In this document: positions 45,001 to 48,000 of the stretch, one piece after another | How positions within the stretch are numbered: position 1 is the stretch's first letter | Layout: every line of letters starts with the position of its first letter | DNA from: a virus | Lineage: Duplodnaviria; Heunggongvirae; Uroviricota; Caudoviricetes | IMG/VR virus record: IMGVR_UViG_2698536477_000003 | Strand: one strand, 5' to 3' | DNA: 52,420 nucleotides | Made by a program: the position numbers

Positions 45001-48000
45001 ATTGAACTGACGCCGGGGTATTTTCAGATAACAGCAGTACCGGTGCTGGCGGTGTATGACCCGACGGTACAGTATGAATTCTGGTTCTCAGAAAAACGCA
45101 TCACGGACACGGCACAGGTGGAAACCTCAGCCCGTTATCTGGGTACCGGCAGCCAGTGGAGCGTCTCCGGCCCGCACATCAGGCCGGGGAAGGATTTCTG
45201 GTTTTATGTGCGCAGCGTCAACCTGGTGGGGAAATCTGCGTTTGTGGAAGCCAGTGGCCGGGCGAGCAATGATGCGGAAGGGTATCTGGACTTTTTCAGA
45301 GGAGAAATCGGGAAGACACATCTGGCACAGGGGATGTGGGAGCTGATTGATAACAGCCAGCTTGATGATGAGATGGCAGAGATGAAGACCACCATCACAG
45401 AAACCCGCAATGAAATCACACAGACGGTCAGTAAAACCCTGGAAGACCAGAGTGCCACCATACAGCAGATACAGCGGGTGCAGACAGACACAAATAACGA
45501 CCTGGCTGCGCTGTACATGCTGAAGGTGCAGAAAACGAAAAACGGCATTCCGTATGTTGCCGGTATAGGTGCGGGGATTGAGGATGCTGATGGCCAGCCC
45601 CTGAGCAATATTCTGCTGCAGGCGGACCGTATCGCGATGATTAACCCGGAGAACGGCAACACCACGCCGCTGTTTGTGGCGCAGGGGAATCAGCTGTTTA
45701 TGAACGACGTGTTCCTGAAGCGACTGTTTGCAGTGAGCATCACCTCGTCCGGCAATCCCCCGACGTTCTCCCTGACGCCGGAGGGCAGGCTGACGGCCCG
45801 CAATGCGGACATCAGCGGACATATCAGTGCGAACTCGGGCACGCTCAATAATGTCGTGATAGCGGAGAACTGCACGATAAATGGCACGCTGAAAGCGGAG
45901 AACATTATTGGTGATCTTGTGAAATGTGCAGGGGTGGCTTTTCCGGTGGATGGTAGTTACCTTGCGAACGGTACACGAACGCTGACGGTGTATGACGATC
46001 ACAGCTTTGACCGGCAGATTATAATCCCGCCGATAATCTATGTCGGGTCAAAACAGGAATCCCGCACCAGTAATGACATCTGGACAGAGTGCTTCCTGCA
46101 TGTTGATCAGAACGGACGCCGGATTTATTCAGGCAGGTCAGTGACAGAGCCGGGAATTTTCAGCGGGATCATCGATATGCCAGCCGGTCATGGTCATATC
46201 ACCCTGAGTTTTACCGTAAGTTCACGACGTCAGAACGGGAGTTTTGGCAGTTCACGTATCAGTAACCTTCAGGCGATAGTGGTGAAGAAAAACAGCGCGG
46301 GGATCAGTATCCGCTGAACATCGCGCCCCGGGATTGCCGGAAGGAGACAAAAACCGTACAGTATGCGCGGGTGCCTTTGGCTGATGGCCGGAGGGAACAC
46401 CTGAAGGCCGGATGTGAAAAGGCCCCGGACAAACATTCATGTTTAACCCGAGGCCTGACCATTCATCCTAAGCAAGTGAAAGGTTAGCGCCTCTCCGTAA
46501 AAGGAGCAAGCGTTTATGTCGCAAAAACCGTTAAAAACCACCGTGATGTGTATCACGGTAGTGCTCATTATCTGGATCACCCACACTTCACTGTGCGAGT
46601 TCCGGTTCCGGATAGCGGGCGCGGAGATTGCGGCGTTCTTACAGTGTAAGCAGTAAGAAACCGTGGCGGGGGAGAATATCCCCCGCCGACCGGTTGCTGA
46701 GGGTGGTCAGCCGGATGGCACCGTTTTAACACCAACAAACCACAAATTTTACCGCAGGCCGGGAAACCGGTACTGCGGTTTTTTTATGGGGGAAATCCAT
46801 GACAGTCAGAATATCGGGTGTGCTGAAGGATGGTACGGGAAAACCGGTACCGGGATGCACGATAGAGCTGAAAGCGCGCCGTACAACGGAGACGGTGATT
46901 GTCACCACGGTGGCGTATGGTCAGCCGGGGGAAACCGGCAGTTACAGTATGGATGTTGAGCCGGGTCTGTACCGGGTGACGCTGAACACGGAAGGGTACG
47001 CGCCGTCATATGTGGGTGACATTCTGGTGAAGGCGGATTCTGCACCGGGAACGCTGAATAAATTTCTGATGGACCTGGAAGACGCACAGTATTACCCGAA
47101 AGCCCTTGCAGAGCTGGAAGCGGTGGCAGCGGAAATCCTGAAACGTGCGGAAGCGTCAGCGGCGAGTGCAGAGGAAGCGAAGAAACGGGCAGAGAATGCG
47201 CGGGGACCGAAGGGGGATAAGGGAGACACCGGGCCACAGGGTATTCCCGGGCCAAAAGGCGATACCGGTGAGCGTGGGCCAAAGGGTGAGCGTGGTGAGA
47301 GGGGGCCGCAGGGGCTTCAGGGTGTGAAAGGTGAACGGGGAGAGAAGGGCGAAAAAGGCGAGCCGGGCGGACCGGATGCGACGACGGCACAGAAGGGAAT
47401 TGTGCAGTTAAGCAGCGCAACGGACAGTGATGATGATACGAAGGCAGCCACCCCGAAAGCGGTGAAAGCGGCAATGGACAAAGCGGACGGATGCCTGGAG
47501 AAAGCGAAAAACGGTGACGATATCCCGGATAAGGTGAAGTTTCTGAACACCGTGGGAGCAGCCAGAGTATACGGGCGGGACATTCATACGGGGGCCGGTG
47601 AATGGACCACGAGCGAGTTTGTCGCCTGGCTGAAAGCCAAAGGGGCATTTGACCAGCCTTACTGGATGATGAAGGCATCACTGCATGCGGGATTCAATAA
47701 GGTCATCACGGATGTCGGACCGGGAAAACTTAATCTGGGTGGCTGTGTCATTGAGGTAATGGGGAAGTATGAGGCAGCCATAGTCCGGGTCACCATTGGC
47801 GAATACGGTGCAACGGGGTTTATTAATGGCACGGTCTGTACCTGTACGGTTTACGGCGACACACAGTATTTCCACTGGCGGGTGGATTACAGCACAAAGA
47901 ACAAACCGGATACGGTCAGCCAGCGGGATGCCAGCACGACGCAGAAAGGTGTGGTGCAGTTAAGCAGTGATACTGGCAGTAATGACGAAACAAAGGCAGC

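Follow-up and report, generated by a model that had tools for sequence, protein, structure and literature searches.

A probable hok/sok-type toxin-antitoxin module without mok in the J-stf slot of a Shiga-toxin-converting lambdoid prophage

Introduction

What is a 46-codon open reading frame (ORF) doing between the tail-tip gene J and the side tail fibre gene (stf) of a lambdoid prophage, and what would it do for the phage that carries it? The question arises in IMG/VR record IMGVR_UViG_2698536477_000003, a 52,420-nucleotide (nt) stretch of Caudoviricetes DNA (the whole of which we call the window). An earlier note, made from the sequence alone, had proposed that the ORF encodes a Hok/Gef-like toxin and that its surroundings fit the layout of a hok messenger RNA opposed by an antisense Sok RNA. 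We are confident that the phage hokW-sokW subfamily is represented here by a complete type I toxin-antitoxin module of the hok/sok type, which a Shiga-toxin-converting lambdoid prophage carries as a "moron" between J and stf. The module is real, ordinary and already known, because its coding sequence (CDS) is in RefSeq, its family is in Pfam and PHROGs, the enrichment of hok in prophages has been published and a relative 78% identical to it has been characterised. One point is mildly new, namely the consistent absence of the mok frame in this phage clade.

Results

The ORF occupies 46516-46656 on the plus strand, from an ATG at 46516 to a TAA at 46654-46656, and the Shine-Dalgarno (SD) sequence AAGGAG (46501-46506) lies 9 nt 5' of the ATG; both the frame and its ribosome-binding site were thereby confirmed where the earlier note had placed them. 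Its predicted product, MSQKPLKTTVMCITVVLIIWITHTSLCEFRFRIAGAEIAAFLQCKQ, matches Pfam HOK_GEF (PF01848; gathering score 22 bits) at 39.6 bits and E 3.8e-10, with residues 10-44 on profile positions 8-42 of 42, and PHROGs phrog_251 over its full length (residues 1-46) at 74 bits and E 1.2e-20. The sole NCBIfam matches, to the Hok subfamily and HokA models, fall under those models' strict cut-offs (35.6 vs 73 and 35.5 vs 89). When aligned with HokW, HokB and HokC, the peptide shows all of the Hok-conserved residues (M1, C12, T14, L26, C27, E28 and E37) as well as the second cysteine, C44. Thus the proposed Hok/Gef identity stands, and the SLCE...E(I/V)AAF signature cited for it is a fair description of the conserved residues and cysteines that are present. 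Identity is 63% to HokW, 35% to HokB and 33% to HokC.

A survey of 1264 unique Hok peptides found M1, C16, T18, L30, C31, E32 and E41 (logo numbering) conserved in more than 80%, reported 42 of 45 diverse Hok homologs to be toxic, and described a disulfide, formed by the second cysteine, that HokB needs for toxicity (bioRxiv 10.1101/2025.08.07.668861). In the same work, K-12 HokB gains its first cysteine by TadA editing, whereas both cysteines are hard-coded in the window Hok. The window peptide has the size (about 50 amino acids, aa), the N-terminal hydrophobic helix, the conserved residues and the second cysteine towards the C-terminus that mark the family, and on its sequence we take the ORF to encode a genuine Hok-family membrane toxin. 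By analogy with HokW, it would be toxic through damage to the inner membrane.

Selection appears to have kept the frame. Scanning IMG/VR yielded 476 confirmed relatives; the 80 retained contain 59 unique modules, and 53 of them entered the alignment and the consensus structure. The ORF is intact in all 59, being 46 aa long with an ATG start in 57, 46 aa with a GTG start in one and 48 aa in one, and the 59 modules encode 14 distinct Hok peptides. The median ratio of nonsynonymous to synonymous substitution rates (dN/dS) of the hok ORF is 0.27 (434 pairs of relatives).

The leader upstream of the ORF also resembles those of the hok family, at a score just under the curated threshold. The covariance-model search that the earlier note had suggested as a check returned a match to Rfam RF01794 on the plus strand at 46369-46527, spanning all 157 model positions at 55 bits (E 4e-11) and ending on the hok AUG. 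RF01794 is named "sok antitoxin", yet it in effect models the hok leader, and its first position marks the 5' end of the mRNA: the hokC and hokB loci of K-12 score 118 and 110 bits on the hok-sense strand, and the curated sokC and sokB lie on the opposite strand, opposite model positions ~43-103. Leader homology is thus shared with hokB/mokB/sokB and hokC/mokC/sokC of K-12, at 110-118 bits there vs 55 in the window. Because position 1 of the model aligns at 46369, we place the 5' end of the hok mRNA there; conservation among relatives begins at the same position, and the leader is 147 nt long. The long leader first drawn at 46320-46515 is thus probably a hok leader, with a start near 46369 by homology, 46334-46362 being the promoter instead.

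That predicted hok promoter, read from the sequence on the plus strand, consists of a -35 TTGCCG (46334-46339), a 17-nt spacer and a -10 TACAGT (46357-46362), and matches the consensus at 8 of 12 positions. Most of the representative relatives shown have TTGCCG, TTGCCC or TTGTCG at -35 and keep TAnnnT at -10, and the sequence further upstream diverges. From the +1 G to the T-run of the terminator, the predicted full-length hok mRNA covers 46369-46785 on the plus strand, about 417 nt. The 3' terminator that had been proposed at 46751-46787 is borne out by a plus-strand intrinsic terminator at 46751-46785, with a hairpin at 46751-46779 (free energy, dG, -21.6 kcal/mol) followed by T7 (46779-46785); a simple scan missed it by counting the loop as more than 8 nt. 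The terminator lies outside the block shared with 933W-type hokW loci. Its 3' arm CTGCGG and T-run recur, with differing loop sequences, in many relatives outside the 933W type, and we assign it to the module because so many relatives share these two parts.

The predicted folds resemble those of a hok mRNA. The segment 46369-46727 folds at dG -161.4 kcal/mol (z -6.6), and extending it to 46369-46787 gives dG -183 kcal/mol with the pairing of 5' and 3' ends retained. In the minimum-energy fold, mRNA positions 2-21, essentially a plus-strand tac-like box at 46369-46388 (GGGTGCCTTTGGCTGATGGC), pair with a complementary fbi-like box at 46705-46722 (GGTCAGCCGGATGGCACC), and this pairing is kept in the consensus structure of the 53 relatives. 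The GGTGCC/GGCACC core is nearly invariant, with one-sided G-U changes only, and GGCACC (46717-46722) is unchanged in 51 of the 53; because the core pairs vary so little, the fold-back draws its support from conservation and energy, not from covariation. Whether the RNA is folded at full length or truncated at its 3' end, the prediction pairs the hok SD with CUCC (46493-46496). Just after the stop codon, a plus-strand stem-loop at 46666-46688 (GGCGGGGGA-GAATA-TCCCCCGCC) is predicted in every fold and has three compensatory pairs across relatives (AU in 39 and GC in 13; GC in 31 and AU in 19; AU in 35, CG in 11 and GC in 5). Its counterpart in plasmid R1 forms the protective 3' end of the hok mRNA once this has been processed to the translatable form (PMC9841398).

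An antisense RNA opposite the leader, as the earlier note had anticipated, is supported by the position of the curated K-12 antitoxins: transferred through the leader model, sokB and sokC land at about 46412-46472 on the opposite strand. The predicted minus-strand sok promoter, at 46481-46509, has -35 TTGCTC (46504-46509), a 17-nt spacer, -10 TAACCT (46481-46486), 7 nt and a +1 G at 46473, the same geometry as K-12 sokB (TTGCCG, 17 nt, TAAGAT, 7 nt, +1 G). It overlaps the hok SD and is a weak consensus match (6/12), so that the minus-strand promoter which had been suggested for a check is recovered by homology to sokB and was not reported by a consensus scan. At the sok -10, AGGTTAG is identical in 52 of the 53 aligned relatives, the exception reading TATCCT. 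The predicted Sok-like RNA spans 46415-46473 on the minus strand (~57-60 nt) and has a single-stranded 5' tail of ~18 nt, a terminator hairpin (46455 to 46421) and a U4 run (46420 to 46417); it would begin GCUUAGG, where sokB begins GCUAGG. Folded from 46477, it gives the single-stranded tail and hairpin at dG -21.5 kcal/mol (z -2.4). At the level of sequence, a cis-antisense Sok with its own promoter and terminator is therefore predicted opposite the leader.

The part of this RNA that would recognise its target is unusually variable. In a set of 14 copies with an overall identity of ~94-99%, variation affects 12 of the 25 columns at 46456-46480, which correspond to the predicted Sok 5' recognition tail and its target in the hok leader, compared with 0-6% in the adjoining parts of the leader and ORF (Fisher p 1.4e-5); the patch has three alleles. 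Such variation fits a diversification of antitoxin specificity in genomes with several copies. In the same 14 copies a second patch, 46412-46418, varies in 6 of 7 columns. It lies just 3' of the predicted Sok U-run and has two alleles, TGTGAA and AAGACG, the latter resembling the 3' tail of K-12 sokB (UUCGUCUUU, Sok strand). The alleles of the two patches combine freely, which suggests recombination within the module. We considered whether the two patches co-vary as a stem and rejected this, since cognate and non-cognate duplexes have mean energies of -6.33 vs -6.04 kcal/mol and 459 of 2000 permutations were as good.

One expected part of a hok mRNA is missing. The layout proposed by the earlier note holds for leader, fold-back, stem-loop and terminator, but not for the mok frame. 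Plasmid R1 makes Hok only if ribosomes translate the overlapping mok as far as the hok SD; Sok exerts its control there by blocking mok, and toxicity is abolished by mutations of the mok start codon or by premature mok stops (PMC9841398). In the window, each of the three frames meets a stop (at 46469, 46485 or 46498), and from there to the hok ATG none offers ATG, GTG, TTG, CTG or ATH as a start. Likewise, a start codon 4-12 nt after the leader GAGG is absent in 58 of the 59 unique relatives, and the Sakai hokW has the same layout; the same script found mokB and mokC of K-12, with an ATG 7-8 nt after the leader GAGG. A mini upstream ORF ending at the invariant TAG at 46485-46487 was considered as a substitute for mok and rejected, as the distance from GAGG to TAG is 33, 35 or 36 nt (by eye, in representatives) and no start is conserved. 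We attribute the conservation of this TAG to its place inside the sok -10 box.

The nearest characterised system is hokW-sokW. About 187 phage records, mostly Shiga toxin (Stx)-converting, hold a stretch ~78% identical to window 46333-46726 (394 nt), and this stretch is hokW-sokW. The window Hok shares 29 of 46 residues with HokW of Sakai Sp5, and the 933W and Sakai Sp5 loci have the same MSQK N-terminus, AE(I/F)AAFLQCKQ C-terminus, 5' GGGTGCC and 3' GGCACC boxes and sok -10, with mok absent in both them and the window. All lie in the late or tail region of an Stx-converting lambdoid prophage, in late-gene orientation. The differences are of place and of regulation: hokW follows lom in short-tailed 933W-type phages, whereas the window copy lies between J and stf of a long-tailed phage without lom, and it has its own terminator where the 933W-type copy has none. 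The Sok recognition tail also differs, as does the sok -35 (TTGCTC in the window, TTGACT in hokW), and because of these two differences we do not expect the window Sok and sokW to neutralise each other's toxin. HokW was published as 51 aa long, which corresponds to the 46 codons counted from its ATG together with five start-less in-frame codons (AAG GAG TCA AGC GCT) that follow an in-frame TAA in VT2-Sakai/Sp5.

More distant systems share the plan rather than the detail. Compared by description and not by R1 sequence, the window and R1 hok/mok/sok have in common a small Hok/Gef toxin, a long structured leader, a tac/fbi fold-back, a stem-loop that would end the processed mRNA and, opposite the leader, a cis-antisense Sok with a single-stranded 5' tail and a terminator hairpin. 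They differ in the absence of mok from the window, in peptide length (46 aa vs 52 aa in R1) and in being carried by a prophage vs a plasmid. With K-12, the GGGTGCC 5' end is common to the hokB and hokC loci and the GGCACC 3' box to hokB. The peptides are only 33-35% identical, and K-12 has mok ATGs where the window clade has none. On sequence grounds we file the window locus under the hokW-sokW subfamily of hok/sok, and not with the R1-type, mok-coupled circuit.

A related phage, PhiR12_2_star (PV340551.1, 1640-1800), carries a scar at the same J-stf junction. The scar keeps the hok promoter, GGGTGCCTTTGACTGA, CGGCACCC, the spacer and the terminator, and with them the 5' GGGTGCC and 3' GGCACC boxes. 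It lacks the equivalent of 46389-46713 (325-331 base pairs, bp), that is, sok, hok and the 3' stem-loop. A 6-bp direct repeat, GATGGC, marks each end-point of this deletion (window 46383 and 46714). As read from the sequence, toxin and antitoxin were lost together.

The position between J and the side tail fibre gene, as first described, agrees with both Pfam domains and RefSeq annotation. The hok ORF is flanked by a J-type tail-tip gene (stop 46317), recognised by J C-terminal domains, and by a tail-fibre gene (start 46799) with a prophage tail-fibre match, and the RefSeq annotation of an identical region concurs. In lambda, the slot after J carries lom; in the window phage, which is lambda-like, long-tailed and without lom, the hok module fills that slot. 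The whole window is a lambdoid prophage, with an integrase at 49821-50918 on the minus strand and a Shiga-toxin-type operon at 18406-19646 on the plus strand, comprising a 319-aa RIP-family A subunit (18406-19365, Pfam 102 bits) and then an 89-aa ORF of B-subunit size. This operon is closely preceded by three tRNA genes (18058-18306) and closely followed, at 19721-19933, by a match to the small RNA STnc100 (158 bits). The prophage's early region holds two tandem plus-strand copies of a pair made up of isrK (an Hfq-binding RNA) and the C4 antisense RNA, at 9667-9855 and 10527-10714, about 860 bp apart and each above the Rfam gathering score.

The ORF had been called unannotated, which is true of the ORF track with its 60-aa floor and not of RefSeq, where WP_000078858.1 ("Hok/Gef family protein") is the window hok CDS, with the same length and position at the J-stf junction. 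A 601-bp query around the ORF matched 1530 of 5426 complete E. coli genomes, 119 of which hold at least 80% of the query, with up to 7 matching places in one genome. In all 25 of the best-matching genomes among these 119 (97-100% identity), the PGAP order is "gpJ", "Hok/Gef family protein" and "prophage tail fiber N-terminal domain-containing protein". Strains STEC17-190 and 89-3156 are examples in which the locus is 100% identical. Annotation elsewhere is uneven. The homolog in GenBank phage 1720a-02 (98% identical) is labelled hypothetical, and the 933W and VT2-Sakai records leave theirs without annotation. PHROGs places phrog_251 in the category "moron, auxiliary metabolic gene and host takeover" under the name "MokW-like host killing", which is odd for a Hok-type protein. 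The "MokW-like" label for a Hok-type protein is also found in some GenBank records. The module escapes both ORF tracks with a 60-aa floor and Rfam at gathering score.

Discussion

We suspect that the module works much as other hok/sok systems do. A constitutive promoter would produce the full-length hok mRNA, whose 5' end would pair near its 3' end and bury the SD and start codon, so that this RNA would be stable and poorly translated. Slow trimming from the 3' end, as far as the stem-loop at 46666-46688, would undo the fold-back and yield a translatable form. In a healthy lysogen, the short, unstable Sok-like RNA (~46473 to 46415) would pair perfectly with the leader and lead to cleavage and decay of the processed mRNA, and no toxin would be made. 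Once Sok is no longer supplied (prophage induction has this effect on sokW), the 46-aa Hok would be made, its N-terminal helix would insert in the inner membrane and membrane integrity would collapse. By analogy with hokW, this may advance lysis and raise phage release.

For the last steps we rely on the work on hokW. HokW arrests growth, and sokW RNA, made from its own promoter, neutralises HokW, partly via RNase III and Hfq (Takada et al. 2021, PMC8621323). Lysogens contain both RNAs and lose sokW when treated with mitomycin C. Induction then brings RecA-dependent synthesis of HokW from the native locus, about 1 h ahead of endolysin, and the protein localises to the inner membrane; deletion of hokW-sokW halves the release of Sp5 phage (PMC8621323). 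We also considered whether read-through from the late operon silences the convergent sok promoter at induction. This could be a partial cause at best and was left out of the scheme, given that HokW appears ~1 h before the late-gene endolysin.

Several points weigh against the reading that we prefer. A simple consensus scan of 46200-46900 with a threshold of 9 of 12 consensus positions reported no promoter, both the hok and the sok promoter falling below it; we call the two because of homology to sokB and conservation, and not on the scan. The leader lies 4 bits under the RF01794 gathering score of 59, and Rfam run at gathering score over the whole window did not report the hok/sok locus. The characterised hokW locus likewise has no RF01794 match at gathering score, and a sub-threshold match is typical of the clade. 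The fold-back and start-codon helices are almost invariant, and covariation neither supports nor contradicts either of them. The mok frame that R1 requires for Hok translation is absent from the window, and both the activation of Hok translation there and its block by Sok are therefore inferred. Sok is unlikely to occlude the ribosome directly, because the predicted duplex ends 28 nt upstream of the hok SD. Finally, for this particular allele, expression and toxicity are extrapolated from HokW, which is only 63% identical, and the biological role is drawn from a single study of a relative in another backbone and another slot. What supports the module in the sequence is the peptide family, the leader homology, the predicted folds, conservation with partial covariation, and the position and geometry of sok; its transcription, 3' processing, decay by RNase III, toxicity and role would follow those of its relatives.

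The alternative that survives best accepts the module and gives it a different job. In this scenario, it would be an addiction or stabilisation system that kills cells losing the prophage or sok, or a defence by abortive infection or superinfection exclusion, rather than a helper of lysis. R1 hok/sok maintains its plasmid by post-segregational killing and lowers T4 plating (cited in PMC8621323). Furthermore, hok is enriched about four-fold in prophages, with 6290 homologs in IMG/VR and in 9.3% of Escherichia phages, and the authors leave its role in these elements open (bioRxiv 10.1101/2025.08.07.668861). The scar in PhiR12_2_star is in keeping with such a job too, since an addiction module can be shed safely only if toxin and antitoxin go in one deletion. 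Against this, the sole experimental test of a phage hok/sok in this clade found a positive effect on phage release (PMC8621323), and the survey reports no hok enrichment near defence systems (bioRxiv 10.1101/2025.08.07.668861). The window sequence itself favours neither role, and we regard addiction or defence as a possible but rather doubtful explanation.

It is quite improbable, in our judgement, that the locus is a decaying relic in which Hok, for lack of mok, is never translated, an inert remnant like several chromosomal hok loci of K-12. Such a view would draw on the absence of mok in any frame, on the need of R1 for mok for toxicity (PMC9841398) and on the deletion of the module core in a related phage. 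The layout without mok is, however, that of 58 of the 59 unique relatives, including the hokW of Sakai Sp5, and HokW is translated from its native locus and toxic (PMC8621323). The intact ORF in every unique relative, its low dN/dS and the conservation of promoters, fold-back boxes and stem-loops also argue against decay. That a small ORF with a fortuitous hydrophobic stretch arose by chance in an intergenic spacer, where frames of 40-50 codons often turn up (45500-47800 has 32 ORFs of 20 aa or more), is refuted by the E values of the Pfam, phrog_251 and leader-model matches and by conservation of the locus across hundreds of phage contigs.

Returning to the hok/sok module that we favour, the question is how it would operate with no mok. 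With no overlapping mok whose translation it could block, Sok must instead work through decay of the mRNA or by altering how the leader is structured; breakdown of the duplex, or a hindrance to refolding of the leader, is likelier than occlusion of the ribosome. The phage HokW clade appears to work without mok, because HokW is still made from its native locus. On balance, we lean towards viewing the HokW clade, the window included, as a mok-less variant of hok/sok. In this variant, Hok would be translated from its own strong SD after the mRNA refolds, and Sok would act via RNase III-dependent decay or by blocking rearrangement of the leader. The recognition tail would be diversifying fast, so that copies within one genome of Shiga-toxin-producing E. 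coli (STEC) do not cross-protect. We found no discussion of a mok-less clade in the searchable literature, a scope that leaves aside older subscription papers and T1TAdb, and the 2026 survey of Hok deliberately left Mok and Sok unanalysed (bioRxiv 10.1101/2025.08.07.668861).

From the perspective of phage biology, a Shiga-toxin phage here carries a toxin that may tune when lysis occurs, and how much Shiga toxin is released depends on the timing and extent of lysis. The clade to which it belongs is also a natural test of whether coupling to mok is dispensable in the regulation of hok/sok.

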